Origin: Ruditapes philippinarum
Lineage: Eukaryota
DNA: 64,000 nucleotides
Assembly (NCBI RefSeq): GCF_026571515.1
Contig: NW_026855476.1
Span: forward strand, 372,001-436,000
Reading direction: 5' to 3'
Shown: in pieces, positions 31,001-61,765 of the stretch
Layout of the letters: each line of letters opens with the position of its first letter
Numbering within the stretch: position 1 is the stretch's first letter
Notes under the pieces: model-generated
Seen by the model: the letters and a program-made list of their open reading frames with translations, nothing else
The model's database searches: none
Told to the model about the DNA's origin: nothing
Program-made: the position numbers and the translations under genes

Positions 31001-34000
31001 GTCTATAGTCTAAAGATGATTTCCTGAAAGTTTCATGCTTGTATCACAATTTGCACTATTTTGACAGGAGAGACCTTATTTCCCGCTCCACTAAAGAGCT
31101 ATGGACTGGTTCCTGGATTCCCTTGTATCTCATAGCTTTCTCTGAGGTGACTAATCTTAAGTCATGTCTACGTCCCCGCGAGGGGTTTGACATTAATGGA
31201 AGATAGATAGATAGAATTTGAAAACATTGGAAATGGAATAAAATACATGGTGATTTTGACGGTAGGCGTGCGGATTTTTTCCAGCGAACATTTTATCTTG
31301 TACATTATTAAAGATGTTAAAATATTAAACTTAATCAAAACAGCTTATATTAAGTTTTTTTTATATGTATGATAAGTACATGTGCTGGGATTGACAAATA
31401 TACATTTTGTTTGGAATTTAAATGTGTTTTGAGCTCCACGTCCCAAGTGTCTGTGCTTTTTAGTGCAATTTTTTATATGATGCTGCTTTTCCAAGAAGAG
31501 ACAATATAATATTTATACAACCTGACCTAAACCTTCAATTTACAAATGGATTGAGTTTAATCTTAAAATACTCTAGGCCCTATAATGTTAACATTTTTTA
31601 AGATTTTACTTATATTTTCCGCGACCTTTTAACAGGCTGGTGAAAATGCCCGATCGGGCTTAGACATAAAAATATCATATTTCAAGAAATATAATTAATA
31701 CGCAAAGGCCCCGCGAGAGCTGTAGCGCTCTTAGATAACATGTATGACGCGTATCAATTCAAATGAAATCTAATTAAAACTAACTGAAAAATTCAAAAAA
31801 ATATATATCCCATACCTAATGAACTGTGAAAAAATCCTTAGTTAAATGGGCGCCGCCATTTTGAAATCATTTTGAGCTAAATATAGATATCAGAGCGCTT
31901 TTAATGAGCGTCTACATTATTCAGACTATTGCTAGCAGACGCATGATAAGTAACACTTCCGGTGAAAGAATGATGTACAGAATCAGATAATAAACCTGCA
32001 TTTCATTGATAAGAATTAAAGTAACGATTATAAATATAAAAAATTACTTTAACCTATCCTTTTTGATAAATACATTGTAAGCACATTAAAAATAACGTTA
32101 CAACAACAACTGTGATTAGAGAATAACAAAAATGGCGGACGGGATTTTCCAAACGCCGACGCATGCGCAGTGGTCCCCCTTTACGTTCTGATGATAGGTT
32201 GAACACCACCAATTTATTCGTTTTGTTTATGGTACAAAATACCTGCAAAAAAGATCTGGTTTACATGTACACTTAACATGTTATGCTAAAATCATAATAC
32301 ATAGGAGCTTTCCGTGCCATAGGTAGCACCTAATTTCATATTATATTTCTTTCTCACTTGTTTTGTTTATTAAGCATTGATATATGATACAAATCAAAAT
32401 AAAAATATTTTGGTTATCTTTTATTTCCTTAGAATTATTTCCCTTTTTCCCATTTTCTAGAATCAAAATATTTAAAGTTTACAAAAATTATATTGTAATG
32501 TAAAATTCTAAATAGAAATGTGACCAACAACTTCATTCTGCTCTAGATTATTGGGCAAATACCTTTTTCTACAGTGCACTCCGGATACAACGAGATTGTC
32601 AGGACTCTGCGTTGTTCCTCAAGAATAATTTTAGAACTCAACACCGCTAAGCCATTTTTTCTACTTTCGGTTCTGTGCACCTTCGTTTTGAAGAGTAAAA
32701 TTATAAAGGCAGGTAACTCTTGTAATTTTATTCTGCTCTATTTATAGCATGTATATCTACGAATACATGTTAATAAAAGGGGGGGGGGGGGGGGGGGGGA
32801 CAAAAAGCCGTCAAAACAGGTCTTTATAAGGGAAAAGGTTAAAAAAAAAAATTCCATACATGTAAAATTTAGCAAGTATCACATAAAAAATGTTGTTATT
32901 TTAGATTGTCTTTGTTATGTCTTCACTTTATCTTGCAATACTTGTTCTATATTCGCAAGATTTGAGAATGTATCTGATTTAATGTCAGACTCGCACTCAC
33001 AGAACCTACGTCATGTTTTTAGTGCATCCATTGTGTTTAAAACACTGACAACTGAATTGTCACACAAGTCCATTGTTTCATCGTCATCCTCATAGTCATC
33101 TGGGAGAAGTTACACTTAATTTCCTAGACAATGTCATCGTCAGTTATTGTCCGGTCACAGTAACATCACTGTCTACATTCATGTATTCATCGACAAGAGG
33201 TATCTGGGTAATTTTCTTGGAAAAGTAACCGAAGTTGGTTCAATGGGATATCTCCCTCTGGATCATCGGCAAACATATTCCCGACGGACTGATTATGATG
33301 TTCAAACCCAGTCTTTTTAAAACAGTTTACAATACATTTTTCTGAAACCATTTGCCATGCTGCAAGGGTTCATTGACTGTCATTTTCAAAAGAGAACAAT
33401 GCCGAATCTACCAGTAATTTTCTATAATAAACTTTAAATGCTTTAATGATACCCTGGTCACAAGGCTGTAGGTGTGAGGTTGTGTTAGATGGCAAAAACA
33501 TTAGCTTAATGTTTGTCAGTCTGTTTATATCCGGATGTGCTGGACATTTATCAACAAAGAGCGAAATGTGCCTGTTTGCTAAACGCATCTGCCTGTCAAT
33601 TCTCCGTACCCAACTTTCAAACAAATACTTGTCATCCACGCTCATACTTGACTGGAAGGCTTTTAACAGTCTTTAAACATCACAGATTTTTGAATTTGCT
33701 GATTAAAAAAGGTTTTAATTTGTCAGTTCCAGACATGTTTGTGGCAAGCATTACTGTAATTCTTTCTTTTGATATTTTCCCGCCACTACATGATTCACCT
33801 TTGAAATGCAATGATTTATCAGGTTACAATTTGTAAAATAAGCCAGTTTCATCTGCATTAAAAATGTTACAAGGTTCATATTGTTCGATGATTCTAGGCA
33901 ATTTCTCTCTCAATGACTGTACAATATTGTCATCAACAGCATTACTTTCCCCACAAACATTTTTATACACAATCCCTCTACGCTCCTTGAAACGCTCTAT

Positions 34001-36420
34001 AAATTCATTTGATGCTTTAAAATCAGAAAGTCCCAATTTTACGGCTTAAGATTCAGCCTTATAAGCTAAAACTGGTCCTGTGATAGGTACCCCTGTGCTA
34101 CGGGCTGACGAAAACCACTTAAAAAGAGCTTCTTCAATGTTTGTGTATTCACAAGAACGGAATCGCTTCCAACTAGACTGAAACAAATTTTTCTCAAAAT
34201 TAGATTTGATGACTCTTTGTTTTTTAGAGTGCTGGATGCTAGTCCATGTTTTCTCGCAAGCTCAGCTTTAGAACAAAGTCCTTTTTCAACCTTTTCGATT
34301 TTTATTATCAACATCCATTTTAAACTTCCATGTGATGAATGTCTTTAAAATGCAGTGTATTTTATAAGAGTAATGAAATAGCCTTTAAATTTGTTTTAAT
34401 CACTCAAAACCATATCGTGATAACATTTCATCACCTATAGGACAATTTAGCCAGTAGCGCAAAAGTAACCATCGATAACTCTCTAATTGATCCCTCCCAT
34501 TAATTGCCTACCATTTTTTGGTAAGACTGCAGTGTTGCATCTAGGCCGCGCGATTGCGCGATTTGCGCATTTTTTATGCAGATCGCGCATTTTAATGAAG
34601 TCAACGCGCGCCAAGTCGCGCATCTGACGATTTTTTAACTTAATTCAGTTTATCTTCATCGTATCTTGAAAGCTTCAGCCATGTTTGTTTTCACTCGTGG
34701 TAATGACTAAAATACGTACTAAATCGCGTGTAGCAGCCGACTGGGTCATCTCGCGCGTGTTTTGTAGTATTCGTCAATATTTTATTTTTTCTACTTCCGT
34801 TTTTGAGCGGACGATAGCTGTCAAAAATGCCTGAACGTAAAATAAATGAATTCTTTTCGATAAGTCATAGTGTAAGGTAAATGTATGTCCCCCACATTTT
34901 TTTCAAATCCCCCACATTTTTCAGTTGAGTGGGGGACAATCCCCCATAATTTTGAAATTCTAGATGCAACACTGGACTGCAGGCGACGCGCTTTACGCAA
35001 GTCCTCATTATAACTTGTGAAAAATATGCATTGTGCGGCGGATATATGTACGTTGTAACCAATATCTCGCTAAAACCGATCTCGTTATTAACGATATAAA
35101 ATGAATGGGAAATAGAAGGAAAAAGGCCGGAACAAAGTAGAATGTACGTTATAAGCGGTACCTCATTAAAACCGATCTTGTTATAAGTGGAGTAGACTGT
35201 ATATATTTTGATTAAATATTCTGTTTCTGCCATTTATATTTTGACAATTCTTTGACACTGAACATTATACTTTGAAGTATTCTCTGAAAACCAAATGAAA
35301 TATTATGTATGCTGACTAGTGATGTTCCGATTGTCGCAAGTTGCCGATAATCAGTTACTGTTATGTAAAGCGACAATAATCGATTCACATATATTTGTTC
35401 CGCGACGTCGTCGAAAATGTTTAAAGTATCAAAGGGAATTAATTCTGACGTTAATTTTCTTTTAGGAACACCTCGCCGATCGCAAAAAATTATCTCAGAG
35501 ACTATTTGGAGTTGAATAGGATCAATACGTGATGTAAACAATAGATATATAATGTGATGTGAATGTTATTATTTGACATCCATTGGAAAATTAAATCTAC
35601 ATGTATTTCTTAAAATTATAACTAACTATATAGGATTAAAACTGTAAAATGTTTCTTCCCTATTTCTTTTTAACGCGACTTTAATCGAAAAGTTATCGAT
35701 TATGTCCCATCCGATTGAACCGATGATCGATTGGGACAAATTTCATCCGATTTCCATCACTAATGCTGACAGGTGTTGGCGCAATGAATAAGAGTATAAA
35801 GAAGTTATTTAACCCATTTTGTTTTACACTTTGCATATGTAATTTACTCTTTAAGGTCTTCAAAAATTATGTGTTATAAAAACATGAAAAAAGGGAAATA
35901 AATCTCACAAAAGTGACAGTAGCCAAATATTTTTCTTTCTGTTTATGTCAAATATTATTCTCAATAAACAAACAAAGTTTAAAAGAAATATCTTTATTTC
36001 TTTTCTAGAAAATTGTATGATTTTTTATGACATAAGCCCGATGGGGCATTTTCACCAGCCTGCTTAAATTATTAGTTACTAAGAAATCAATCGATTATGC
36101 CAATACAAGTTGTTAGCAACTCCTAACGTCGTTAAATAGCTGTATTTAAATAATTGTCAATGTCAACTCAATACCGTGACCTCCTTCATGTAACACATGC
36201 ATGCATGGTCACAGTTTTTGACATAAATAAAATTTGCAGCAGGTCATCATCTGATCATAATAAATTACGTTGTTATTATGTAGCACAGTAAGCTTATATT
36301 CAAATGAATAGTAATGTATTAAATAATGAAGATATACCTTGCCCTTGCAGAAATCGCAGGACATAAGTTCTTTTGCAAGAGACTTCCGAAAACTGAACGT
36401 GAAGATCTGAGCGCTGCCAT
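16021..36420 (-). CDS. GOT2: Aspartate aminotransferase, mitochondrial precursor, 10 exons, 427 aa
   Basis: Exons 36420-36338, 23905-23749, 21968-21840, 21471-21341, 20980-20893, 20269-20201, 19481-19295, 18733-18568, 17208-17058, 16143-16021; all GT-AG, total 1284 nt in frame. Transit peptide [28 protein letters not shown] then [16 protein letters not shown]; motifs [38 protein letters not shown] lysine [29 protein letters not shown]. Confidence 0.97.
16333..16720 (-). mobile_element. SINE nested inside another SINE (GOT2 intron 9)
   Basis: Host SINE (GTTTAACGTC...CATATGGCAACTTT, then GGTGGAGGAAGAC) is split by a second tRNA-headed SINE at ~16400-16592; duplicated AG(T/C)TTTACTGGT flanks the insert. 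Confidence 0.65.
17410..18545. repeat. Degenerate HINE/satellite fragments (GOT2 intron 8)
   Basis: AACAAG start at ~17410; repeated GCTGTACATCAAAGGACAAG units (17845-18085); about three ~180-bp units with AATTTTGAC(C)C...AAACAA(T)CTT (18100-18545). Confidence 0.55.
17502..17720 (-). mobile_element. tRNA-derived SINE, full length, (CAAA)n tail
   Basis: Head with GGGTTAGAG A-box and GGGTTCGATCCC B-box on the minus strand; tail (AAAC)n; TSD ~TCAATGTTTG; nearly identical to 47093-47306. Confidence 0.85.
25370..25966 (+). mobile_element. Crypton-like non-autonomous element with ~140-bp terminal hairpin
   Basis: Near-perfect hairpin 25372-25514 with loop CGAGGCGATAGCCGAG, followed by TTATTATATGA, whose inverse TCATATAATAA closes the element at 25956-25966. 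Crypton assignment is from architecture only. Confidence 0.6.
27760..28820 (+). mobile_element. HINE/pearl-type element with internal tandem repeats
   Basis: AACAAG start, hairpin GTATTGC-GG-GCAATAC, subterminal AGTCCCCTACCGGT; two ~170-bp repeats (28408-28725); (GACG/GACA)n microsatellite; 3' palindrome AGTCCCCTCCGGTTAAACCGGTAGGGGACT. Confidence 0.85.
29313..29981. mobile_element. hAT-like MITE with 6-bp TSD
   Basis: Termini CAGTCTTC / GAAGACTG; CTTCAG at 29307-29312 and 29982-29987; subterminal GGGCCAGT/ACTGG(A/C)CC repeats. Confidence 0.7.
32900..34316 (-). pseudogene. Frameshifted Tigger/pogo (CENP-B-like, DDE_1) transposase
   Basis: Fragments in different frames: [19 protein letters not shown] (34066-34314); [17 protein letters not shown]...CGES...[12 protein letters not shown] (33824-34036); LFVDKCPAH...[26 protein letters not shown] (33370-33645). 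3' boundary approximate. Confidence 0.9.
34530..34974. mobile_element. hAT-like MITE nested in the Tigger, 5-bp TSD
   Basis: Perfect 15-bp TIR CAGTGTTGCATCTAG / CTAGATGCAACACTG; GACTG on both flanks; asymmetric subterminal repeats (GCGCGATT left, CCCCCACATTT right). Confidence 0.8.
35317..35762. mobile_element. hAT MITE with 8-bp TSD
   Basis: TIR TAGTGATG / CATCACTA; perfect TSD ATGCTGAC (35309-35316, 35763-35770); many CGAT/ATCG subterminal motifs. Confidence 0.85.
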
Positions 36421-40905: not shown

Positions 40906-41140
40906 ATACGCAGACCACGCATCTTAGCTACGCCTTCGCCGGTGCATAGAACAAGCGCAAACGGATCTTGTTACAAACAGTCTATATTTATAAGTGACTT
41001 TTAAAGCCGACTTACTAAACCTAGTACAATTCATTTGAAATACTGTAGTCCTAATGGACAAAAAGTAATTACAAACACGAAAAGTGGTTATAGATTAAAA
41101 ATTCTTACTTTTTTCACTGTGTATTCATTAAAAAATTAAA

Positions 41141-44100
41141 ATGGTGAAGTTTAGCATCATAGTATGGATTTCTGTCGTAGCATTTCTAAATAACGGAAAT
41201 GTAAAACCAGTGGAAAGTGAGGATTCTAATGCAAAAGCCGATGAAAAATACGAAAACGTGCTTCAAGAACTGAAAGCTATCAAACGTGAAGTTGAAAACT
41301 ATAGAAAGACTTCAACCCGACTTTTACAAGAAAACAAAATTATGAAAAATGAACTTGATAAACTTCACGTAAACGATCAGATTCAAGCGAAAATGATTGC
41401 AAACAAGAGGCTTAAGCGATCAAAAAGAGGTAAGTGTTCTTTCTGTTCATTTTTTTAAACAAAATGTCTTAATGGATCAGAAATTCCAAAAATGGTTTAC
41501 AAAATATAGCGCACCAACTTACACGAGAAAATAAATCTTGCTTATCTTATTTGTGGCATACTTACCGATACGCATGGGCGTATAAGAAGAACAGAATTTC
41601 AAAACAATAAAATTTCAAAATAAAATGTAAAATCGAGAATTTGAGAGTAGATCGATCAACAGTTGCGTATGTGCAAATTGATTTTGTCAGTATGCTTATA
41701 GGATGTTACCTAATTCGAATACATGTTACTTATTTTGATAATGTGTATACACAATCAATCAAAGGTTATGAGAGAAAGGAGTTAGCACATTGCTGATTCT
41801 TGCATATTAACGCGAAGCCATTTTAAGAAACATTCGTTCATCTTATATTCAATAATAGTTTGCTCCCTATGAATCAAATGTTTGCAACGAACCATTTTCC
41901 ATATCGATTGTCACAAACCGGACTCAACTTTTGTTGTTATCAACATTTTTCTATTTAAAAAAAAGAGTATGCTTACAAAATATATCACTATAGAAAGTTA
42001 ATTCTATATTGTCTTATTTTGTTGAGTATAGAAATAAATTGCATATTTCTGCAAACAATGCCATTTATTATACGCAGTCTCATCTAAAAACATAAGGAGA
42101 ACAATGTATATTCTTATAATTAATAGCCATATAAGAAACGTCATGTATTTTTATATTAACATGCTTTTATGTGCGTTAGACATTTAACTATGTAATGGGA
42201 TAACTTAAATATTAAAAAAGTTGAGTTGAGACAAAAAATATGTTAAAGACAATAATCATTATTCTGTAACATTGATATAATACGCACTTAAAATATTTTT
42301 AAGGGATCTAAATGATCGTGTGGTACTAAATTTCAGTTGTGTGAATGCTAGCATACTAAAACTTTTAAGCTGTTGTGCTTGTGTTATCTTCATACAAATC
42401 ATTTTAAAGCGATAATTTCCTTGATTATATCTCAAGTTAAGTTATGATGCAACAAAAGAAAAAACAAACAAAGAAAAAATGTTAACAAAGGAAATAAAAC
42501 CCATCTTGATTACAATAGAAACACCTGGCTATGTTCTAGTTTTCCTACAGTAAATACATGTTGAACTATTTAAAACAGTGTAAACGTTCGACTTCATGCA
42601 ATATCTTACATTAAACACTTGCATGAGTTTATTTTTATGACAATAATATAAGCATTTATATAAACATAATAATAATTTTAAACAACATAATAATTTAATT
42701 ACAAATAAATGATATCGCTTAGATATCTCCTAAATCCCTAGTTACATCGACCCTTCGGACCAAAGACATGACCTCGGCGTATACTCATAACGGCGTATAA
42801 CAAGCTGAGGTACTCGGCCTTAAAAGATATATTTTTTCATAATAATTAAAATATGTTGTAATAAAAACATTAACATATAAAAAGTGAAGTCAGAAAATTC
42901 AGAAATACGTTCGTGACAGTAACGCATCAAAGACGCTGATTACACAAGTTACATTTAATGTTGAGAGAATTAATTTCATAACAAATACAAATTCAATTTA
43001 ATGTTAAATGTTAGAAATGAAAAATTATATCATGACACGCGTAACTAGAATGTTAGAAATTTTACATTATCTAAAATAGAGGCTGGTTTGGTTTTGAGAA
43101 TCTACATTACCCGTTTGTTCAAAATCAAGTTATTAGAATTGATTTTTCCTTAAACAGTAATGTAGAGGCGGTATTGAAAATGCCATGGTTCGCGAAAATA
43201 AAACATTAGGTTACAGAAATACGGTGACTTAGCATAAAAGTTGTCTGATGATCAAGTATTTTTCAAACTATTATTTATACCTAAGATTTTTATTCTATAA
43301 ATGTATTACATACATTTTAAATCAATAAATTCAATTATTTTTCGGGTCGTACAGATAAATAATTTTTATTTATGCGTGCCATTATTGTATATGTTATTCA
43401 AGGTATTTTACATTAACTAAACCAAAACTTCAAATGTACTTGATCGGTCACAAGCACAAAAATCATCATGTCAAGTTTTTCAACTTTTCATTGCACTTTC
43501 AACAAATTTATAGCCCTTTTTGACTAAGAAAATGATCTTAGATTTAAACTTGAACAGAATCTTGAAACTTTAGATATCTAGGCAGGGTCACAAGGAGGAT
43601 AATCAGGTCAAGGTATTTTAACAAAGTTATGCACCTTACTAATTACTTTAATTCACATGTGAAAGCAAATACTTAAAACGTTTACGAATAATTACATGCA
43701 AACTCAAAATCCAAAGTTCTTTAACTCTTCACCACATGTTGACAAAGGTTTTCCCTCTTTTAGTTAAAAAGTGTTCTGAAATTTAATTTGCATTTAATTC
43801 AATACTTTAGTGTCTCATGAACCAGAACAGATATTTACTTATAATTCTAAGCAAGCTTATCCGAACTTTTTTGTTGCTTTTTAATAAATGTGTCCCCTTT
43901 TTACTTTGAAAATATTCTGACATTTATAATTATTTTAATACGAGACCCAAACAGGTCAATTTCACTTAATTATTTTTGCTGTTTCAATCTTTTTTGGGAT
44001 GAAATAAAATCGATATGATGACCTGACCTGTGTAATGTTGTCATTCTTTTTACCAAAGACAATTTCTTTTTATATGTTTTCTTTTGTTTTTTCCTGAAAA

Positions 44101-45648
44101 ATTTATTCCCCTCTCCACATATCCAATTTAGCTTCTATCGTAGATGTTGGGTGCAGGATTGAATTCGGTGATAGCTCTAGCTGTGTTTGTCTCCTTATGT
44201 AATTAAATCTTTAAACGCAGTGATGTTTACCAGATACCACACACTTATCATGTCTAAAAAGAAAGCCTTATTGGCTCGATTTATTATCGATTATGAATAC
44301 AGTTAAAGGTGCCACTAAAGTGTAATACATTGATAGGACATATCATTATTATACATCCTAGACACAAGTGAATTCACCTCCCACTTTTTGTGTCATCCTG
44401 GATAATATGCGTACATGTTCTGGTACATCTTTCATTTTATTAATATCTTGTATCTTATTTGATAAACGTATTTATCTTTTATAAAAAGTCTTTCAAAATG
44501 ATTATTATTTTATGGTGATTTAGTTTGTCTTCTTATCACTAAGGTTTTATCTTAATTAGTTTTTTATTATTCTTTTTATTTGTTGTTGTTTCACCCATGG
44601 CAATAATCATGTGATATTGTTACTCGTTTTGTACCATGTAATGTTTATATAATGAAATAAATCATTATTATAAGTACATTATATAAATATGTGCTTCTTT
44701 CGAGCCTGAATATATTAATAAAATTTATTCTGATAGCATGACATTTGATGCTTAACCTTGATGCTTTGATTACTAAATTAAAATGCATCAACACCTGAAT
44801 TTGATGCACATGCTATTTATTTTGAAAATATCAAGGCTTTGTTTCTGATACATCCTTGTTCCCCGATTTTGCTTTACACTTAATACCCCGTTCCGTTATG
44901 AAACAAGTTCCCCAGTTCGTTCACTGTTTATAGTTTATTAAAACAGTACACACTTGATCCTCGATTTGCTCTTAAACTAAATCCCTCGTATCGTTGTTTC
45001 GTAGTATTCGGCCGATTGTTTCAAAAAGGCCTCATTGTTGATAATCAAGATAAGATGTTAGATACCCATTGTATTGGAAAAAATGAACTATTGTGTTTCC
45101 AGATCTTGATGTTAACTTTTGGAATGTTTTGGTAAATATAAAAAGACAGTGCAAAAGGAAAAAATAAATATTTAAATATATTTCTTGTTTTAGATGAATC
45201 AACCTGCGCTTTTGGTCAAAATCAATCTCCGGTTGCATTCACTGCCTATTTGGACCATCACAAGACCAATCTTGGTGTCGACCAGGCGATTGTCTACAAC
45301 AAAGTTCTTCTGAATAAGGGCGCGGCGTATAATGTATACAACGGTATGTTTACAGCTCCAAAATCTGGTATTTACATATTTTCATGGTCTAGTGCTGCTA
45401 GACAAACCGGGGCAATATTTGATATTTGGATAAACCTAGTTGTCAACGCATCAACACAGACAACAGCTGTTGCTGAAAGCCGACTAAGGGGCCATGATCA
45501 TCAAGGTAGCAGTACTGTCATCATTCATGTTAACAAGGGTGACGTTGTATGGACAAAACGACTATCCAGCGGCGGTGCGGAGATTCATTCCGAGCCTGAA
45601 AGACGGGTTAGCAGTTTTACAGGGGCTTTGCTCTTTGCAGAAGATTAA
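41141..45648 (+). CDS. Secreted C1q domain-containing protein (signal peptide, coiled coil, globular C1q), 2 exons, 247 aa
   Basis: Exon 1 41141-41429 (MVKFSIIVWISVVAFL signal peptide; heptads YENVLQELKAIKREVENY...; ends KRLKRSKR), phase-1 GT-AG intron, exon 2 45194-45648 with gC1q motifs PVAFTAYL, IVYNKVLLNKGAAYN, GMFTAPKSGIYIFSW, KGDVVW, SSFTGALL. AATAAA at ~45805. Confidence 0.92.
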
Positions 45649-48080: not shown

Positions 48081-51000
48081 CTATAAATGAGTAGTTTCTT
48101 CATCGCTGTCATGATGCGGCACCAGGTGGCGTTCTTCGGTCTCTTCCGGTGGTGGAGGCGGAAGCTCATCTTCTTCGTCTGCTGCAGCACGTGGAATCGG
48201 AACAGCAACCACAGCTTCTTCCGGTATAGAGTCTATTCTATCCCGCGATGTCTCTCGCGATTTTAAAAGATCATAAGATTCAACAGGACCTGTACTTCCG
48301 GCTGAATCTGTATCGGATTCTTCGTCAGATTCCGAGATTATATGAGATTTTGAAGAGGCACGTGATGCCCTTGAAGATTTATCGTCCGGTAAGCCTTCTA
48401 GAATTTGTAACAATGATAAAGAACCCCTCTTTTCCTTATAATATTCAGAATCGTCAGAAACAGACATCATATTACCAGTTTCTGGTTGACGTGCGTTAAA
48501 CACACCGTCATTACTAGAATTAGATGGTGGCACTAATGGTTCTCGGTCACCCAGTTCGTTTTCATCAGCGCTATGGTGGATTCCAAATATAAATCGTCTG
48601 TGCTTTTCCTGCCAACGCTTTTGTTTCAATTTTTCAACTTTGCGTTTCTTTTCTGCTTCCTGGAAAATGCGCATTAAAAGGGTGAATATTTAATCAGGTA
48701 AGTTTAACATAAACAAGAAATCAGATGTTTAGAAAGACTGGTTCCTCAATATAACTCATAGAAATGTCCAGACTACCAATAATATATATATATTGAAAGT
48801 ACTAACACATTTTTCCCTTATATATTTAAAACAATAAGGATTTATTCCTTCATTCATTATACTTAAGAAACCGCATGCATATCTTTAAAATATCGAAATC
48901 AAATTTTAACTTACATCTTCACGTTGCTTCTGTGCAATTGAAGTCACCTGATGTAAAAGGTCATCTATTTTTGACTCAGTAGAATCAATGTCAATTGACG
49001 ACAAACAAAGGGCACGATTCATCGGAAAGAAGTCATAGTTTTCTTGCTCAAGCTAAAAATAATAAGAGATAATAATAAATATTAGCAAACTTCGACATAT
49101 AAAACTCGTTTCCTTAATATGACAACAACTGCGTGTTTTATATTACTATCAAAAAATCAAATTATGCAGCGTTTGATAACTCTATCGACCCATAACTCAA
49201 TATTCTAGCTCACCTATCTAGATGAGTTCAACGGAAAGAAAAATGTTTAATTTAAATATATTGACCAACTTAAATTTATCATTAAAACTTTATGGCACAA
49301 GCCTCTATTACCTGGCCGATTTAATTGTTTAGATACTGAAATCCCCAAAAAACTCAACTTAGAGTTCCCAATTCAAATCAGGTAAAGTCCATGAAATAAA
49401 GTCAGCCAGAAGAGGGTCAAAAACTGAATAGATCGGATAGACTACTCACCAGTTTGCTAACAAAGAGCTCTATTGCAGTATAATCGCTGGTTTTCATGTC
49501 ATTGAGGTGTATAAAGAAGAAGACATAAGACCACATGTTGTGCTCATTTCTCACATGGAAGTCAAATCCCTACAAGGAAATAAAAACATGGCACATAAAA
49601 CATGGCACATAAAAGCGTTTTTACATGAAATGGAGTTATGCTATGTCCAATGTATTCTATAATATTCTTTAAAAATGTACAGAGAAACCTATATGCCAAG
49701 TGTAAGAAATCTCGAACGAAACATTGAACAAATGATTTAATCTCATAATGTTAGAACGTTTCTTAAAGCATTGTCGTCACTATGTGCAAGTAATTATATG
49801 AACATTAATATTGCAATTAAATTACCTTTCCGTGATGTTCAAAGTCATAGCTGTTTCTGCTACAAATAAAGCACGTGTCTTTCATATCTGACTCAGCTCG
49901 CCACTAGAATAGAAAATAAAAATATTCAACATTATTATAGTTTGTATCCTTTTAAAACAACAACAACAAAACAAAGTCGTTTCTACATTTCAAATAAGAC
50001 CTTTACTTATGTCTGATTAAAACTACACTTCAATTTAAGACAGGAAAGCATTATGTGAAGAATGTAAAACAGACTTAAAAGACTTTGCCAATAAGTTTGT
50101 ATTTAAGTGTGCTCCATACGCCAGGGGCACATCACGATCAGTGTCTACAATATTTAAAGTTAGAATATAGTGCGTACACTTAAACCCTAAACCTGTTGTA
50201 ACTGAAAGGAATACGTCTTCGTCATTATTATAGAGCTAGTCCAGTCTGTAAATTCATACAGAGTTACCAGGCTCTTTACTTGTAACTCAATATTTGTATT
50301 TTGGTTATGAAGTCACCCTAGTTACAAATTCAAAGCAGGCTAATTAATTACAAAAATTCGACAGGTCCAGACTTTAGCTGCGATACACTGCCCAACATTT
50401 CAAAAGTAAGATTCGGATTAGACAAAATTACCTTCAAGTCTCTGAGTTCGGAGAAGGTATCTACTATAATACCAAAGATGATGTTCAAGCCAATGGTAGT
50501 GATGAATATGAAGAAAGACACATGATATAACACTATAGGCCAGAATGTTGCAAATGTTCGCTCCGATTCTCCTTGTTTCACTTGCTGTAATGTAAAACAA
50601 CAATAGATTACTGAATGACATTTATCTGTAAATCTAATACAATACTCGACACTTTCATGTATTGAATAGAACATGAATTTACTAACCTCTAAACATTACT
50701 TGTTAAAAATGAACCTGATAATTAAGAAATATTTTATATTGTATATTAGCATTTACTAATGCAGAAGAAAAATAAACAAGTTGATTTGAAGCTTAACAAA
50801 TTGAATAATTTGTGCCTTATTTATATCTTTGAAACATTGCCTCTATCAACGAAATGTTTCTGCAATTTATTGTTCATATTCATTTGGAAATCAAAGTAAA
50901 TCAATATAGTAAATTTACCGATACGAGACACACACAAGCGTCACAAAAATACAAAACAGGTATATAATGACTATTAAAAGTATATATGAGCCGCGTCACG

Positions 51001-54000
51001 ACAAAACCAACGTAATGCATCCGCGCAGTCTGATCAGGATCCATGCTGTTCGCTTACCAACTCTAAAACAAGTAAAGAAACTGATAGCGAACAGCATGGA
51101 TCCTGATCAGACTGCGCGGATGCGCAGGCTGTTCTGCATCCATGCTGGTCGCAAACGCATTACGTTGGTTTTGTCGTGACGCGGCTCATATATATATATT
51201 TCTTGCTCTAAACTCTTACCTCAAACATGTCACCAATGAGACCATATCTAATGACTGTTACCGTACACTGCCAAAGTGTTGAACAATACAGATAATCACC
51301 CGGTGCAAAGTAGGCTCGTAGCAAGGAGAACCCAACGAGAGAGTATATATAAATAACGATGAAGCCTAGAATAGCTACCCATAGCAGTGACACACCTGAC
51401 GACAAAAAAGATATATAATTTTAGATTTGAATAGTAAGGTTACAAAAAATACAAAAATGGTTAATTTGTTAACTGGCTTAATAGTAGTATTTTTTCTACA
51501 ATATACATACATTTAAAAATATATTTTCTGTAAAGGTGTCACGTCGAAACAATAATTAATATCGGGGAATTACACTCGAAAAGTAAAATATTAATCAAAA
51601 GAGAAAAAATATCATTAATTATTAATTTCTAAATATATCACATACAAGTTTTTAAACACTAGTAAGCAAAGAACCTAACGGCAATACAGATATACTATAA
51701 CGTTCTGATAAGACTGTAAATACAAATCATTTATATTATAAAACCAAATGTATTACCATTTTGTGTGACTGCCTTTATGACACCGCTTAGCAGTTGATTA
51801 TTATTTACAATGTTAAGGAGATGGAATGCAAAGAAATAGCCATGAAATTGTGTCCCTGCAGCAGACATGGCAAGAAGAAGCTGAAAAGAAAAATGAATTA
51901 AAATGTCAGTTACGGAAAATTAACGGATGGTATAAAGCATTAAGTAACATAACGCAGGCACTTAACATACGTACCATTTTATACGGATTGACACGGAAAT
52001 TCAAAGTAATTCATTATGTATTCGATTTTCACTATTCCTTGCAATTAAACTTTCATCACCAATCAATAAAATGGATTGCCATATTTTACAATAATGGAAA
52101 CTGTCTAAAGACTAATTTTTCGTGAGTAAATTTCTTAAAGTATCTTAAAGAAGTTTAATGTGGCGCTATTCGATTCGTGTTTCATTAGAGCACAAACAAG
52201 TGTCATTACAAATCTAGGTAATGTTAAAAAGTCATAACAAAGATAATGCATATATATACATGTATATATTTACAATATAGTAAAATGTTGTGAAACTAAA
52301 GAATTTGACATCAAGTTTAGATGGCTTGTCCTCGGAGCTCCTTTTCCCAACCGTTTCTCCCTTGTCTTTGTTCTTATTACAGCACTGACTACAACAGGAA
52401 AAATGATAATAAAATGATGGATCAAAACTACTTTTACAATAAATTTCTAAAACTAAACTCATATTTTGTTTGCCAGCTTAGTCAATAATAAAAAACTAAG
52501 ATATAAACAGAAAATACGTTTGAAAGTAATTTATTTATTTAAGGTCACACTGTTTTAGCAATTTGTACAAATCACTTCCCCGTTTGCCTCATGGAACTAA
52601 CCATGACTGATTTCATTTAAGGAAATATGATTGAGACGAAGTTGGACTCGAACTCCAATACACATGAGAGGGAGGCAAATTAACTATTACGAAGCTCAAT
52701 TTGTTCTTTTAAGTAACTTTGATGAGTACGTCAAATGCACCGGACTTATAAATTCAGTGTATGGCGCTATTATCTATAAGTCACATGTATGATAAGTAAC
52801 TAAGTTAAGAAACTGCATTTGAATTATTACATAAAATATGTAATGTCAATTTAAGATTACGAGCATAATGTTATTTAAGACTACAAAATAAACAAAATGT
52901 GAAAATGAAATGATGACAATCCACATGAAATTGTCCCTAGATCTTTGTATTAACTTGATTTGCACAATCATATCTGTTTAGACATCAAATAAGCTTCCCT
53001 GATCAGGACGAGTGCAATTATTTTGCCTTAAAGAAGTACATTTTGTTTGTTTGTTTGTTTGTTTGTTACAAAATTTCTTACCGGAAAGGGTCAGCCAATT
53101 CTGAACACGTGGGAAATCGTGGATGATTGGATAAAAAGTAACTGATGATTACAAACAACGAGAAAAGATTGTGTACACCACTTAGAATATACATGGTTAT
53201 AGTATATTCATGTTCTGGTATGCGTCCGATTGAAGGCTGTGGACTGAAACAGAAAGAGTTTTTAGATTATCTAAAGCTTTAACTTCTATTAGAAATAATC
53301 TAATTGATTTACAAACAACAAAATATTTACTTTTCAACATGTTTGTTTCCCTCATGTTTCAACTTCTCATTATGTCTTTTTTATTTATCATATCGTCTCT
53401 TTACAGATGCTCAATAAAGCGAAACATGCTTTGATAAACAGAGTTGGTTTATGAATAGTTTTACCATTTCTCTAATAGTGGCATATATATCACATTATCT
53501 TGCATTTTATAACATTAAAAAAACAAAAACGAAGCCTTGAATTTAAAAGAAACAAAGCTTGAATTTTCATGCTTAAATCTTTGGATGGAAAATGCAATTC
53601 TCACACAACTAAGAAACACATAACTCACTCTTTCAACAATGCAAAGTTAAACGTATCGTTTGTTGTATTTCCAGCATTCTGTATACGCTCATAATCCTCG
53701 AGACTTGCCTTAGCATTCCATGTAAGCAACATAAGTATATTTATTGCAAAACTGAGAAACGTCACCAGATGATTCCATAGAAGCCTGCAAAAACACACAT
53801 TCTATTAAAATTATATAGGTAATGCCACAAATTGGACCTGAAATGTCTTATGTTAATCGTCTGTTATTATTTGTGCGTCAGATCTATAATAATATCAAGT
53901 TTATAAAAAATATAACAACGTCTTCAGTTGCATTTGAACTAAATATATGTAACATATTTCATTTAGTTGAAACAAGCTTCTTTGTTGTTGGGATTTATTA

Positions 54001-57000
54001 TAAGAGTTATTGTTAAGAACCCCACAAAACGGTTCAACGTATAATGATAAATGTAATCTGAAGTGATAGCCATGTACATACCAGCCCTTGGTAAACATGA
54101 TTGCAATAGGGTTAAACAGTATCTTTCTCTGGTATGAGATATCTTGCATAATATCCCGGGTCCAGTCCATTAGATCTCGTATCTTGTTGCTAGGAGACGT
54201 TCTGTCAACATTCCACTTCAATTTCTCCTTCACCTCTTCTCTTATAAGTATCTGTTCAGAAATTACCACAACATTAAACTTTTTAAACTTTTTAAAAGAA
54301 AATACGTTGGAACATAAAAATCTTCTAAAAGGAGTATCAATAAACTCATTTGATCAAAGCAACATTTGTAAGAAAATATATAAAAATATGAGGACAGTAT
54401 GTACAACCACATGAGATGAACTCATCTAGAAACTGTAGGTGTATGAGCAAATAAAATTGACAAGAAAAGTCACGTGTTCTTGAAAAAACTGTCTTTACAA
54501 TGCATATTTTTAATCGTTTTTTTTTTCATTTAGAAGGAATCATAATGACTGTTTGTAACACCTTGTTTTTGATCCTGAAGTTTATTTTCTGTAGCACATC
54601 GTCTTTCACAATCTCGACTGACGTACTGTTTTTCTTATAATAATCATAAGCTTTCGTCTGTTCTGGTGTTATCGACAAACCTATACAAAAAATATTAATA
54701 TTATAAATGTATTTGCAGTTGCGTTAAATAATTCAAATTTTCTGGTTAACGTTAAGAAAAATAACATGACATGGAATGTTTAATAACAAATGAAATAGAC
54801 ACTGCTATCACTTAACATATAATTAACTTAATTGCTAAACTTGTTGATAATGAGAAATCAAAGGAGAATTCATATGTAATTTGTAAATAAATGTAAAAAC
54901 TAACGTGTAAACATTTTGGTGGGTTCTTTTTTTCTTTCTTTCTTTATTTCCTTTTCCATATTTGTTGATAGATCTATCATTAAAATATATAGTTAACAAT
55001 TTCTTAAAAAAAGAGAAAGTTAAAATGTATAACGTGTTAAAGTAAATAGGATAAACATAGTTTACTTACGTTCCACCAACTGTGGATCTATGTCATGCAT
55101 GCGTGCAAGAATCAAGTAGAATTTGAAACCTACAGCCGTGAGGTTCTCCTTTAGAACATTCTTTTGTGGTCCTTTCTGGAATATTATATTTAGTATTTCT
55201 AATTATACGTGTATCAGTAATTTGAATGCAGTACATTTTGCCACAAGATCAAATTTATGTTAATATCCTGTTACTTTTGTCAAAGACCAAGTCAAACTGA
55301 TGTTCTTGATAGACAAAATAAGTTGTCGCATTTCTTTCACTTTGAGTAACTGATAATTCTCGGACTACGCTTAATCCAGTTTTATTTTCAGACATTTGAA
55401 ATATAATATCTAATCATATATTAACATGTTTGTTTCTACTACAGTACTACTGACTCAATTTTTATCTACTGACTGGTTATACGGAATTCTTTAAGTAAAC
55501 ACATTAATCTATACACTTACAACAACTCCTTTCATCAAACTACCACCGAGTGAAGCGATTGATTTCGCCGACTGCATATAGCCAGCTTCTGACTTAACGA
55601 TGTCCTCAAGTTTTGGCTTCTCCGATTGATGCATCTCATAACATTGTGCCATACAGCGATACAGAGCTTCCTTATCTAACGTGTCTTTTACCTCCTAAGC
55701 ATTTTGAAATTATACATGTTATGAGTGCGACTACAATATATTTATAGATGACTTCGTGATAATTAACTCAAACTTGTGGTGTTTAATTCTTTAAATACTG
55801 CTTAAAACATTTACAAATGTTTCATTTTACATTATCTCTCACAATCAGACTCAAGTCAGTATGTGACTTTCGTGTACTCATTTCTGCTTTCATATTTTTC
55901 AAGAGATCACAAGGTTCCAGAAATTTTATAAGATTTCATTAAACTTAAATTATTGATTGGTATGTGCTTTTGATAATTATAATTACCTTTTTTCGTAATA
56001 ATAGAAAATGAACTGCATTCCAATAAATAAATAAAATGAATCTATATAATCATTACCCTTTAGCAAATCATCTTTAAACTGTATTAAACAAATTTGCTAA
56101 ATTACCTTAGCAACTTGTGAGGCTGAAGGCCCGTTTTCTTCGATCAATGACAATATCAGTGATGAAATAGACTCTCTCAAATCAAGTACCTGTAAAAAGA
56201 TGTGGTGTAATTCTAAAGTTGTATTGCTTAATTTTCTTCACTTACAAACGTTTACAACTTGTGCCTATGCATGAAGGGTCACTTTAGGTCTTCCTCCTTA
56301 AGGAAAGCTGTAAAAGTCGCCATATGACCCCCAAGTGTTGGTATGACATAATCTCTACCCCCTAAAGAACCACAACACTTCATCACAACAAACGATGATA
56401 ACATCACTCTATATTTGCCAATGTTGCAACGGCATGAAAAGAAAATCAGAAAACATGAACTACTTTTATGAATACTTAGTACCTCTATTGCAAAACAAGT
56501 TCAAGCTTTACAAAAGAAAATATATGTAAATGCGAGTAAGAAATGGCTGACAAATCAGAAAGTTAGATTATGATGGTTAGGATACCTTCTCAGGAGAGCA
56601 GTCTGCAATCTCACCAGCCCTGAGAATAAAATTTATGTAGTCGATGGCTTTCTTGTTATAAATCACTTCTCTGTTCTCTTGATTGCCCTGCATAGACGAA
56701 TACATTTCTTATCATCTGTACAATATTCTATGCAATTTATCATTACATTGTATCTAATTTACTATTTTACCGAGCTGAAATATATGCTGCATTACATACT
56801 CATTTGGCTCGGTGATTGTTTATTGCTTTATTAATTATATTAATAATTAATGTCCAAGAGTTACTAAAGTTAAATCTCTAATTTCCAATAGTTTTATTTG
56901 TACAAATTTAATAAAAGTGATTCAACAAACATTTCAAAGGCAATTCGGGACAAAACTCCACGTTTCATTTAATAAACCATTGCTACACATTCAATGTATC

Positions 57001-60000
57001 TTTTAAAGTCAACTCTTACCGAGCAAAATTCGTTGAGTGTACTAAATAGTTGAATGACAAGATCGACTGTCCTTTTGTTGATACTGGAGTAAACAACATT
57101 CAAAAACTGTGCAGTCTCGCCAATGATGTTCAGTGATTTGACATTGTCAGGCTGTTCCCGAAGATAGTTCTTTAAAACAGAAAGCAGTGTATATGAATGA
57201 ACATACACATTTGATAAACATATATAAAACGATTAGATAAACCACTTATTTGTTGCACATTGTTCAAAGATGTTTTCATAAGTGCAAGTTATTATAATAA
57301 TGTCTAGGTTCTTTATTTATACAAAGGTTTAATAATTTCCAAATAAGGATTTAAATATCAGACTGAGTAATATCAAATTTTCTTGAACTTTGTTTTGTCA
57401 ATTACCTTAATAATAAAGTAAGTCTAGGCATATAGTATAGGCAGTCAAATTCGTTTTAATGTTATAAAAAACATATGGTGGGACAAAAAGAGAATGTGAA
57501 TTTTCAGATATGAGTAAAACACAATACATTAATAAATGAATTCATATCACGTTTTTTGAAAATGTTAAACACCAGGATTTCAACAAACCTGTAGACCAAC
57601 ATGCTGACCATCACATATCCTGGCAAGAACTTTTAGTACCAGTTCAATACAACCATCATCCTTATATTCCAACATATCTGCTACACTCTCGTCCATATCA
57701 GTAAACATCTGCTCAGCACTATCCTCCTCCTCCTCCTTAATAAAATATTATCAGCCATTATCATTCTGATTTATTGAATATAAATAGTTTATCAATTCTT
57801 AAATTTGTCCTACACGTTTATAGTTAATATTGTGAAAGAAGAAAACTTTTTCATTACAAAATAAAAACCAATACTTTATTAAGTACAACATATATAAAGC
57901 TATATTTATATTTGCAACAAAACCTTTACGTATATATTATCATTTTAGTGAAAATACCTCATCATGATAACGCACATTGTATATAAGTGTGTAAAACAGA
58001 TTATAGTTGTAGACTAGTTAATACGGTTATAGAATATTTCTTATTTAGTTTTAAGTAAATAATTACATCAATAAGAATGTCCATCATTTCTATTCCGCCG
58101 GTGTCAGGTTTATACTCCACATTTATCTTTTCAATCATTTTGTCTGGTGTTGCCGGTTGGAGCAAATTCTCATTGCTACGGTCACTTATATAGTCCTTCG
58201 ATAGACCATTAGTCATAGGCGGTGGCTTTGCTTTTTTCTTTTCTGAATTCTTTCTTTTCTTCGACTTCCTTCGTTGTTTCTCTGTTAATGGTTCTCTAGC
58301 TCTACTCAAAGCCCTCTGCAAGTTTAGAAAGATCAGAAGTAGGTGGGTCACATCCTAATTTTTCTGATAACCTTTTTAAATTTCATCTGATTAGTTTGCT
58401 AAAACACTTATCTTTTTACTTTCTTTTTAAACAAAATATGAAAGTGGTCAAAATAAATTAATTACGTACTTTGTGTGTTTTATAAAATTATTGTCAATCA
58501 AGGCATCTATTAGGAACTCTGAGAGAAGTGAATAGCTTGCTTAATTAAAACAACATTTCATAAGACATTAACAAGAGCACCGCTAGGCGGAGCATTACAT
58601 GCCCGAAAGTGGTTTTTTTGTGTAAGGATGAAGCATTTGTAAGACATTACATAAATTAAATAAAGTATTACCTCCTTCAAATAGCAATCCTCCTATAAAG
58701 TTTGAATATTGTGGGCCAAATGGAACTTAAGTTATGCTCTGGAAACTGTTTACAGTTTTGAGGTAATAGTGACCTTGACCTTTGACCTTGTGACCCCAAA
58801 ATCAATAGGGGTATTCTACCCAATATGGACAATCATCCAATGAAGTTTGAATATTGTGGGCCAAATAGACCTTAAGTTATGCTCCGGAAACTGTTTTCAG
58901 TTTTAAGTAATAGTGACCTTGCCCTTTGACCTTGTGACCCCAAAATCAATAGGGGTCTTTTAGCCAATATGGACAATCATCCTATGAAGTTTGAATATTG
59001 TGGGCTAAATGGAACTTGAGTTATGTTCCAGAAACTGTTTTCAGTTTTGAGGTAATAGTGACCATGACCTTTAACCTTGTGACACCAAAATCAATAGGGG
59101 TCTTCTACTCAATATGGACAATCATCCTATGAAGTTTGAATATTGTGGGCCAAATGGAACTTAAGTTATGCTCAGGAAACTGTTTTCAGTTTTAAAGTAA
59201 TAATGACCTTAACCTTTGACTTTGTGACCCCAAAATCAATAGGGGTCTTCTACCCAATATGAACAATCATCCTATGAAGTTTGAACACTGTGGGCCAAAT
59301 GGAACTTAAGTTATGCTGTGGGAACTGTTTTCAGTTTTGAGGTAATAGTGACCTTGACCTTTGACTTTGTGACCCCAAAATCAAAAGGGGTCTTCTACCC
59401 AATATGAACAATCATCCAATGAAGTTTGAACACTGTGGGCCAAACGGAACTTAAGTTATGCTCCGGAAACTGTTTTCAGTTTTAAGGTGATAGTGACCTT
59501 GACCTTTGACCTTGTGACTCCAAAATCAATAGGGGTCTTCTACCCAATATGAACAATCATCCTATGAAGTTTGAAAATTGTGGGCCAAACGGAACTTAAG
59601 TAATGCTCCGGAAACCAAATTGCTAACGGACGGACGGACGTTCCAACATTTTGGGTCTAGGGGCTATTTTCTTTGTTATTTTCTTTGTTTTCTTAAGGGC
59701 TACTAGCCCATAAACCCTTTAATCACGGAATGAACCTATTGTTCTCTTTTGTTCTTTTTACTGTTACATAGCCCCTAAACCCAAAATGTTTGCTCGGACG
59801 GACAGACGGACGGACGGACGTTCCAACATTTTGGCTTTAGGGGCTATTTTCTTTGTTATTTTCTTTGTTTTCTTAAGGGCTACTAGCCCCTAAACCCTTT
59901 GATCACGGAATGAACCTATTGTTCTCTTTTGTTCTATTTACTGTTATATAGCCCCTAAACCCAAAATGCTCGGACAGACAGACGGACGGACGCAAGGGGG

Positions 60001-61426
60001 TATAACATAATATGCCCGAAATTCTTTCGGGCATATAAAAAAGACAATATTTGGTGTGCTGCATACAAAGATGTGATATCTGAATATTACGATTGTGTAA
60101 AATGAATTGTTCAAGACAGACAGAAAGTTGTGACACATGCAGTTGCGAAAGATCGCCTAAGATCAGAGGAAAGGATGAAGTTTTTCAAGATTTTGATTAA
60201 TATAATACGTATAAGTACTCTTTGTGTGGTTGTGGATGTAATTATGCATAGTGAAAGTTTTAGTAGTAAATATTAGTGTAATTCATTGGACATTTTTGTT
60301 TGTACAATATTATTACTTGTTTGATCACATGTTTAAATATACTATTACTACAATGTCACTTCAGAAGAATATTTATGAAATTATTATCCAACAGCAAAAA
60401 CAGTGTGGTTATATGTTAAAAATACTCATTCGTTTTTCATGAAATACATTTTTACATGTTTACCTTGTTAAGCCGATTACCCTGCATGAAACAAAATATC
60501 TTTATTCTATCAATAATTGTGAAAATTCATTCTTTATTTATAAAAAATAAGCCAACAATATACAAATATAAAATAAATAGTATTGACACAAGACAAATAG
60601 TGACAGGCAGAACGTATTAAGTGACAACAGTGACAATAAAAACAGACAAGTTACACAGATATACAGAAGTGAAAAATTATGGATATTTTGAATTTGTTAT
60701 GTGAACGTTATAATTGCATGGTAGCAATAATCATTTTGTTGTGGAATCAAAAATTATATAGATGTTCTTCTTGAAAGGCGACATCGGAAACCACAACGTC
60801 AGAAAGATTGAGGCAACATCTCAAGAAAAAGCTTTAAAGAGAGTCGAGCGTGTTATAAAAAGAGTTTGAAGTTTATTAGTGTGATTTGATACCTTCTTCT
60901 TTTTGGTTCTTTTAATCTTGAGGATGCATTTCTATGTCAAATATAATTTAGTGTATATAGATTAAACATTACACTCACACATGAAAAAAGAATGTATAAA
61001 CATTGGAAAACAAATGAGACATTTAAGAAAATTTTCAATGAAGTTTCTGATGATTTTAGAAAAGATTGTTGCTGATGTGATTTTGTAAATCATGTAAAAT
61101 GGCCATTATTTTCCCAAAAAAATCTTCTCTAGAAAATCAAAAATCATTAGAATGTTCAAGTATGTAATATTCTAAACAACCATTTCCACGTTAACACGTA
61201 CATTTTACTAATTCAATAAAAAATTATTCATATACATACATATATAAAAAGGTTTAAATGAATAGCATCTTTACCATGCCATGCATCTTTTCTTTCTTTA
61301 ATCTTAAATTCATAGTGTTGTATTTTCTGTAAGGCTTTCCGGCCGAGCGTCAAGGACGTTTGAAAACTACCGAAGTTGGCCATAAACTCTCCGCGTCTTG
61401 TTTCATGTTGAGCAAGCAGAGCTCTC
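48081..61426 (-). CDS. Divergent inositol 1,4,5-trisphosphate receptor-like Ca2+ channel (RIH-associated and ion-transport domains); 5' part lies beyond the window
   Basis: In-frame GT-AG exons: 58315-58067, 57735-57589, 57169-57020, 56687-56586, 56189-56106, 55694-55521, 55175-55070, 54680-54562, 54251-54082, 53784-53629, 53243-53082, 52388-52274, 51880-51757, 51395-51220, 50584-50432, 49903-49826, 49569-49450, 49052-48915, 48659-48081; probable upstream exons 61426-61275, 60931-60893, 60481-60464. Motifs ICDGQHVGLQNYLREQ, EFCSGNQENR, SVEIVKDDVLQKINF, LNIIFGIIVDTFSELR, TCFIC, HVRNEHNMWSY, DYTAIE, FFPMNRAL. Confidence 0.9.
50988..51187. mobile_element. Palindromic MITE, Sola2-like
   Basis: Perfect 31-bp TIR GAGCCGCGTCACGACAAAACCAACGTAATGC, inner IR GCATCCGCGCAGTCTGATCAGGATCCATGCTGTTCGCT, flanked by ATAT; ends ~33 bp from the donor of the pore exon. 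Confidence 0.8.
56275..56350 (+). mobile_element. SINE 3' fragment
   Basis: GGTCTTCCTCC...AAAGCTGTAAAAGTCGCCATATGACC; same family as the host SINE at 16333-16720. Confidence 0.5.
58570..60040 (+). mobile_element. HINE/pearl-type element with a ~145-bp satellite (~6.5 copies) and a second ~181-bp duplicated unit
   Basis: AACAAG start, hairpin, subterminal ATGCCCGAAA; anchor GAAGTTTGAATATTGTGGGCCAAA every ~145 bp (58700-59610); (GGAC)n tracts; 3' palindrome TATGCCCGAAA-TTC-TTTCGGGCATA. Confidence 0.88.
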
Positions 61427-61765
61427 CTAAAATTACAAAGCGTTTGTTAACTTAGTTCGAAATGTCTCAAAATTATGAACGAAAGAACTTTTTAAAAATA
61501 TTGGTCTAAGATTGCCTATATATATAGATATGACATTTTACTGGGAACAACTAAATCATTCCAAACCAAGACAAAATTATCTTAAATGTTACTGATGACA
61601 TTTTGTCAGGTAACTCATTTATCAGAATATTTGTCAAATAAAAACTATCATTGAGACTGTTCCATTTAACATATGTACCTAGAAAATTAAAATCTCTAAA
61701 CAGGAAAAATAGTTTAAAACTTTTTAACCATGATACCAGATGCAAAGATAAAATAAAAATAAACT

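Follow-up and report, generated by a model that had tools for sequence, protein, structure and literature searches.

A filter without the glycine run in a clam gene of the IP3-receptor family and the likely steps of its origin

Introduction

The filter GLRxGGG(V/I)GD is a hallmark of the A-type IP3 receptors (IP3R-A), and it is absent from a gene of the same family in the stretch of Ruditapes philippinarum DNA analysed here (64,000 nucleotides of contig NW_026855476.1, positions 372,001 to 436,000; the whole stretch is called the window below). The question raised by this locus is whether the missing glycines reflect a faulty assembly, a decaying copy or a channel of a different kind, and what such a pore might do. 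A preliminary description, made from the letters of the window, had proposed a divergent subfamily with altered permeation, or a non-conducting subunit. We compared the gene with its homologues, placed it in trees, traced the likely history of its filter and modelled its pore.

Results

The gene and its transcript

The window holds the part of the channel gene corresponding to about residues 1773-2866 of its closest relative, a Mercenaria mercenaria protein named ITPR1-like (P0027), which shows 71-98% identity to the window exons and is 93% identical to the Dreissena query of the transmembrane-region search described below. The features of the gene are as follows, all on the minus strand.

55068..61446 (-): ARM3/RIH-associated region in eight exons, matching P0027 from about residue 1773 to 2166 and taking in the Ca2+-sensor positions (CDGQH, EF); bounds approximate
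52271..54678 (-): juxtamembrane region and TM1-TM3 in five exons; approximate tblastn bounds
51757..51880 (-): exon for TM4 and the S4-S5 linker; homology, spliced contig
51220..51395 (-): exon for TM5, short luminal loop, pore helix and filter; AG/GT ends, spliced contig
51229..51243 (-): G-L-I-G-D, of which GL closes the pore helix and IGD is the predicted filter loop; sequence, predicted secondary structure of the orthologue P0011, conservation
50432..50584 (-): exon encoding the loop after the filter and TM6/S6, whose gate FGIIVDTF has Val immediately ahead of Asp; sequence, spliced contig
49826..49903 (-): exon of the linker domain that supplies the CxxC half of the zinc site
49450..49569 (-): exon of the linker domain that supplies both zinc histidines (H...EH) and a Ser at the Ca2+-sensor Thr position
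48915..49052 (-): exon starting the C-terminal helix; homology, spliced contig
48081..48659 (-): last coding exon, with coiled helix, acidic disordered tail and stop codon

The translation of the pore exon (51395-51220) ends ...CTVTVIRYGLIGDMFE and its filter is RYGLIGDMFE, with no GGG(V/I)GD. Both this translation and a spliced contig from public run X1 bear out the absence of the canonical motif that the preliminary description had noticed. That contig, 3,263 nt long, aligns on the channel exons with the introns missing; the run is classed "RNA?", which is the tool's guess, and the spliced contig itself implies a transcript. Of the sequencing runs listed as containing the sequence, none is recorded as RNA. 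Contig positions 2337/2338 correspond to window positions 51220/50584 and join the two exons directly with no extra letters, and no letter differs in the pore and S6 exons. Since nothing is inserted at this junction, the glycine run is truly absent and RxGGG is not restored; an assembly error or a hidden micro-exon is thereby ruled out. The S6 gate and the C2H2 zinc site are intact, and the four exons that follow the S6 exon stay in frame to the stop at 48081, as had been described. Differences between the window and public runs in the channel exons are synonymous in nine of the ten cases displayed, the tenth being Glu to Asp in the tail, a tally that covers these ten and leaves 103 further differences outside it. 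The raw-read depth of runs X21 and X23 on the channel exons is about 0-6, and their displayed joints come mostly from an intronic repeat (318 more joints lie outside the display).

A MITE-like high-copy inverted-repeat element at 50981..51194 is intronic, 26 nt beyond the pore exon, and lies outside the protein. It is about 210 nt long, has terminal inverted repeats of 45 nt and, inside these, a perfect inverted repeat of 38 nt, and shows very high depth in both DNA and RNA runs.

The contig that contains the window ends 3.6 kb past it, and residues 31-1767 are found in order on another contig (G000:C13047, about 470-508 kb, plus strand), mostly at 76-100% identity. We infer that the channel gene is split over these two contigs; the contig ends flanking the break are error-rich and far from the pore. 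Pfam finds Ins145_P3_rec, MIR, RIH, RIH_assoc and Ion_trans in that order on P0027, and matching exons are present in the clam genome. The window gene encodes a full-length IP3-receptor-family protein of about 2,860 aa.

Conservation of the filter among animals

Homologues were collected by a pore-exon search (24 proteins among 39 candidates), a transmembrane-region search (169 long proteins, of which the best 120 were listed) and a HMMER search of 1.84 billion representatives, which gave at least 150 more matches. The retained set comprises 266 pore regions, with GLIGD in 62 of them and a close variant in 71; both counts take in isoforms and the window gene. The motif is therefore conserved in orthologues, a point on which the preliminary description had wanted a check. 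Named carriers of GLIGD or a variant are bivalves, gastropods, a chiton, annelids, nemerteans, the flatworm Macrostomum and Lingula (GLIGA); the 120 matches listed, the best of the 169 from the transmembrane-region search, include no vertebrate, fly or nematode names.

The five filter residues are the most highly conserved of the scored segments within the GLIGD clade (38 dereplicated rows), with a mean of 0.95, followed by the linker (0.91), S6 (0.89), the pore helix (0.79), TM5 (0.77) and the loops (0.45-0.57). The gate and vestibule motif FGIIVDTFSELR is present in 36 of these 38 rows, and the zinc site is intact in all 28 clade rows scored for it (28/28). The filters of the wider clade lacking GGG vary and include GLIDG, GFVDS, GLSDG and GLENG. 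Judged from the sequences collected, loss of the glycine run is common to a much wider animal clade than the GLIGD lineage. Relatives without GGG were also seen in the amphioxus Branchiostoma belcheri (P0160) and the orthonectid Intoshia linei (P0191).

Placement within the IP3R-B subfamily

Four short and five mispredicted or partial pore regions were dropped before trees were built. A FastTree tree used 215 rows, thinned from the 266 at 88% identity, and two IQ-TREE trees used 64 hand-picked rows and 47 hand-picked rows (181 columns), the latter with the pore and loop columns removed; the clam IP3R-A row was entered without its luminal-loop exons. The GLIGD clade was recovered in the FastTree tree and was supported at 100/99 with 64 rows and at 100/98 with 47 rows and the pore columns dropped. 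In the 64-row tree it sits inside an animal group lacking GGG (92/88) that contains some sponge genes, Trichoplax, an acoel, hemichordates and a sister spiralian paralogue, and a wider 100/99 clade adds Capsaspora CAOG_04510, Salpingoeca and sponge receptors keeping GLLSGGGLGE. Both the large clade and IP3R-A persist at 100/99 when the pore columns are removed. The window gene does not fall in one clade with the vertebrate ITPR genes and the clam canonical IP3R, and a union of the GLIGD clade with IP3R-A was rejected (p-AU 4.1e-5, pore columns dropped, the groups having been named after the first tree was inspected). A tree with ITPR and RyR thus agrees with the divergent subfamily proposed earlier, but that subfamily already has a name, IP3R-B.

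The name is used in the excerpted texts of PMC7992859 and PMC9113742. According to the excerpts of the former, the bilaterian ancestor had IP3RA, IP3RB and RyR, IP3RB was lost in vertebrates and is absent in fly and worm, and IP3R-B is understudied, its physiology being mostly undetermined (PMC7992859). The Lottia genes 163525 and 236387, which are our homologues P0055 and P0096, occur in the IP3R tree file of the same leech paper. The Capsaspora IP3R-A accession is XP_004347577 in the excerpted text of PMC9522344, and CAOG_04510 (XP_004347257) is taken by elimination to be CO.IP3R-B; a glycine loss that it may share by descent with the animals received support of only 82/87 and 87/92 in the 47-row tree. 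We consider it very probable that the window gene is a member of the published IP3R-B subfamily. Alzayady 2015 reportedly placed IP3R-B as sister to RyR. That relationship was not recovered here, the position of RyR, represented by one partial row with a long branch in short alignments, being unresolved in the 64-row tree and nearer IP3R-A in the 47-row tree. While the subfamily is already published, a description of the GLIGD filter or of its stepwise history was not found among the results listed in the literature searched, which did not take in the primary IP3R-B paper (Alzayady 2015); the figures or supplements of that paper may already show a divergent type-B pore.

What changed in the filter

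The preliminary description counted five residues (RxGGG) as absent from the filter. The glycine run is indeed gone, but the five-residue gap is just one of several ways to align it. The S6 gate Gly follows the pore-helix Gly by 45 aa in 30 of the 37 clade rows and all 6 of the IP3R-A rows that were anchored (also in 12 of 30 sponge/choanoflagellate-group rows; 44 in RyR), and because this spacing is the same in the clade and in IP3R-A there is no net loss of length. Four residues after the pore-helix Gly stands an Asp in 36 of 37 GLIGD-clade rows. The same offset holds Gly in 17 of 25 rows of the sister paralogue, 6 of 8 of the hemichordate/acoel/placozoan group, 29 of 30 of the sponge/choanoflagellate group and 6 of 6 IP3R-A rows.

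Register scores, computed without a gap penalty, depend on the partner. Compared with IP3R-A, the five-residue gap is best (15.2 vs 2.7) because IGD resembles VGD. No filter gap is needed against the hemichordate/acoel/placozoan group (3.6-4.4 vs -12.5 for the five-residue gap), and when that group is itself set against GGG-bearing type B, a two-residue gap is best (9.1 vs -4.5). GLIGD against GGG-bearing type B puts the two-residue gap narrowly ahead (9.0 vs 7.6 for five), and MAFFT likewise opens a two-residue gap. Read this way, a deletion of two residues together with a Gly-to-Asp change is more likely than a deletion of five. The likeliest history is one in which two of the filter's three glycines would have disappeared in an ancestor and the one left would then have become Asp in the spiralian lineage; the register is mixed, and any of the three glycines may be the survivor.

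The luminal loop between TM5 and the pore is short, as described, but it is not an oddity of the clam gene. The linker and the pore Cys are 44 apart in 34 of 36 clade rows, 15 of the 16 GGG-bearing type-B rows that could be measured give the same figure, and a short loop also occurs in most type-B and protist receptors. We therefore rejected it as a peculiarity of this gene; on these comparisons the short loop appears ancestral and the long ITPR2 loop (about 55 aa) a specialised state.

Ligand and regulatory sites

Compared with IP3R3, the IP3 contacts R266, K507, R510, R568 and K569 are kept, R503 is Lys, T268 is Arg, Y567 is Ser, and R270 is aligned only across a 4-residue insertion. This pattern, with the basic contacts kept and the Thr and Tyr replaced, runs through most of type B, Capsaspora included, as do two clusters of basic residues, RQKLxRN and SRKN. 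Which ligand opens the channel is uncertain, with most basic contacts kept and two polar ones changed. Capsaspora IP3R-B is said, in Alzayady 2015, to have released no Ca2+. That IP3R-B could not bind IP3 is a second-hand statement in the excerpted text of PMC9113742, which cites the same study. The list of contact residues draws in part on the excerpted text of PMC8301844.

The Ca2+-sensor triad of IP3Rs is Glu/Glu/Thr in the excerpted text of PMC9522344, and by our own mapping of the positions it is Asp/Glu/Ser in the clam gene; the first Glu is Asp in 28 of 28 GLIGD-clade rows. Leech ip3rb2 is enriched in touch neurons according to the excerpts of PMC7992859, and its Helobdella match carries an LFNAN signature, read by eye from the supplement. 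LFNAN or LYNAN occurs in 23 of 30 GLIGD-clade rows, in 0 of 23 sister rows and in 0 of 8 hemichordate/acoel/placozoan rows. From this signature, leech ip3rb2 probably belongs to the GLIGD clade.

Structure models

An AlphaFold2 model of the Patella orthologue P0011 (31-row alignment) had a mean pLDDT of 66.5, with 88-89 around the filter, and showed a pore helix at 78-90, a loop I91-G92-D93, a helix at 94-98 and S6 from 107. Its top Foldseek matches were IP3R and RyR (E about 1e-9 for the latter). VIA-align gave Z values of 8.9 for CatSper, 8.7 for PKD2, 8.6 for TRPML and 7.9 for IP3R3, which are tied and too low to be meaningful for helical bundles; the PKD2 and TRPML alignments had rmsd 5.1 and 5.8 over 138 and 136 residues. 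No TRPP or TRPML sequence match appeared at E up to 10.

Modelled as a tetramer, residues 5-236 scored 0.56, whereas the highest-scoring of three controls had 0.00; runs agreed in at least 79% of contacts, with pLDDT of at least 59. Of solved pairs, 21 of 30 reach the mark used, and of single chains none of 23 does (17 of 29 and 0 of 30 for eukaryotes), counts that apply to four copies only roughly; the pass may stem from the predictor's memory of solved IP3R and RyR tetramers. In the model the pore helices pack on the neighbouring S6 and Val137-Val137 contacts form at the gate; the confident contacts do not include the Gly or the Asp of the filter.

Relatives in the clam genome

The clam has about six non-canonical type-B genes beside one IP3R-A, with the filter GLRNGGGIGD (G000:C13804), and one RyR, with GVRAGGGIGD (G000:C13971). 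A loose DNA pattern for GGG(V/I)GD was uninformative (174 matches vs 127 in the control), and a tighter one gave 2 vs 0. Further non-canonical genes are two with GLIGDLF on G000:C9372, one on G000:C15778 and one on G000:C12673, and G000:C5347 carries a fourth GLIGD-type N-terminus. The pore exon at G000:C12673:51108-51296 (+) reads GLAGE, with in-frame stops in its TM5 part as read, and is either a pseudogene or affected by sequencing error. Both GLIGD-type paralogues of G000:C9372, at about 183-184 kb and 282 kb, match RIH_assoc twice in tandem, which may reflect an alternative exon close to the Ca2+-sensor region.

The sister IP3R-B paralogue on G000:C15778 has three tandem 179-nt TM5-pore exons (120456-120278, 119276-119098 and 117697-117519, minus strand) with AG/GT ends and the filters GFVEG, GLVDS and GLVEG, lying between one TM4 and one S6 exon. 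Splicing in two of these exons at once would disrupt the reading frame, which makes their mutually exclusive use probable. The TM1 exon of this paralogue likewise seems to be duplicated, with copies near 129428 and 128862.

Other features of the window

An aspartate aminotransferase-like multi-exon gene (Pfam Aminotran_1_2), which we take to be GOT2, lies at about 17000-23950 (-). A C1q-domain gene at 45142-45645 (+), with a possible signal-peptide exon near 41132-41455, stands tail to tail with the channel gene. There are also a broken DDE_1 transposase at about 33190-34345 (-), with stops between its pieces, and similar short exons at 2810-3121, 8124-8330 and 10426-10656 (-), which by eye have a fatty-acid-binding-protein-type look, with no Pfam match for two of them.

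Discussion

Our results favour, with a probability of roughly 55%, the reading that the window gene encodes a homotetrameric intracellular cation channel with altered permeation through a short, Asp-lined filter, its conduction, selectivity and location being deduced from homology and models. On the models, the pore helix would end at GL and I-G-D would form the filter loop, followed by a short helix, while four subunits would pack with each pore helix against the neighbour's S6 and a normal S6 gate would be retained. A filter ringed by four Asp side chains would be narrower and more charged than a glycine filter. Such a ring would be expected to lower conductance relative to IP3R-A or RyR and to alter, probably raise, selectivity for divalent ions.

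An alternative that we regard as unlikely, though it merits serious weighing, is a non-conducting IP3R-B that serves as a scaffold, a ligand sensor or a subunit damping canonical IP3R tetramers, its pore being kept for folding or assembly. The reported failure of IP3R-B to bind IP3 would suit it, as would the wide differences among filters through the clade lacking GGG, the retention of a canonical IP3R and RyR in the clam genome, and the loss of a glycine motif that is described as the IP3R/RyR filter in excerpts of PMC3194816, PMC5715910 and PMC8301844. However, the filter is conserved within the GLIGD clade above TM5, the pore helix and S6, the gate, the Asp of the vestibule and the zinc site are all preserved, and a paralogue with three alternative pore exons of different filters suggests that pore properties matter. 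The IP3R1 mutant D2550A, according to the excerpted text of PMC9168715, keeps about 50% of its activity, which also counts against this alternative. More doubtful still is a conducting channel with another role, gated not by IP3 but by a different inositol phosphate, a lipid or coupling to a membrane sensor, or else passing chiefly monovalent counter-ions, in specialised cells of which touch neurons are an example. The enrichment of leech ip3rb2 in such neurons, the LFNAN signature of its Helobdella match and the Ser and Arg at the Tyr and Thr IP3 contacts point that way, but the retention of RQKLxRN and SRKN in most type B fits a phosphorylated inositol ligand, and the added Asp would argue against a purely monovalent pore. 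The chance of an artefact or a decaying copy is negligible, given the identical X1 contig over the pore and S6 exons, a motif shared by dozens of species and the predominance of synonymous differences among those displayed; here too the preliminary description, which had seen no decay, was right.

The preferred reading, an Asp-lined conducting tetramer, can be extended into a bolder proposal, which we put forward tentatively and think may well prove wrong. An animal lineage with the IP3R fold would have exchanged the wide glycine filter, thought universal in the family, for a TRP-like ring of Asp, giving a narrower and more Ca2+-selective release channel that answers a non-IP3 signal in specialised cells, for example touch neurons, while the sister paralogue would choose among filters through mutually exclusive pore exons.

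On these comparisons the pore appears to be what most sharply separates the animal members of IP3R-B from IP3R-A and RyR, and within it one residue, the filter Asp, is singled out. Databases label all of the clam's type-B genes "ITPR1/2/3-like", and studies of pharmacology and expression in molluscs and annelids may therefore mix different channels. The natural series from GGG through a single Gly to Asp offers ready-made filter swaps for examining conductance and Ca2+ selectivity in release channels.

Among known systems, canonical IP3R-A (ITPR1-3 and the clam gene on C13804) shares with the window gene the domain order, the S6 gate region, the C2H2 zinc site, the 45-aa length from pore to gate and, as aligned here, the second Ca2+-sensor Glu and most basic IP3 contacts. 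The clam gene differs from it in having no glycine run, a short luminal loop, Asp at the first Ca2+-sensor position, Ser for Tyr and Arg for Thr at IP3 contacts, and Val before the gate Asp. RyRs are about 5,000 aa long, with SPRY and RyR repeats. The clam gene resembles RyR (clam C13971) in channel fold, short luminal loop and zinc site, whereas at its shorter length it has no GVRAGGGIGD, and the Pfam scan of P0027 found no SPRY or RyR repeat. With the IP3R-B members of Capsaspora, leech (ip3rb1/2), limpet, polychaete and acorn worm it shares its tree position and a range over spiralians and hemichordates; sponge and choanoflagellate type-B receptors keep GLxSGGGLG(E/D), whereas the clam lineage reads GLIGDMFE, Asp standing in place of the Gly seen in its relatives. 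The filters of PKD2 (TRPP) and TRPML are LGD and NGDD, and the predicted layout of the clam channel, a pore helix, a short x-G-D filter and a second short helix, resembles theirs, a likeness that is one of resemblance only.
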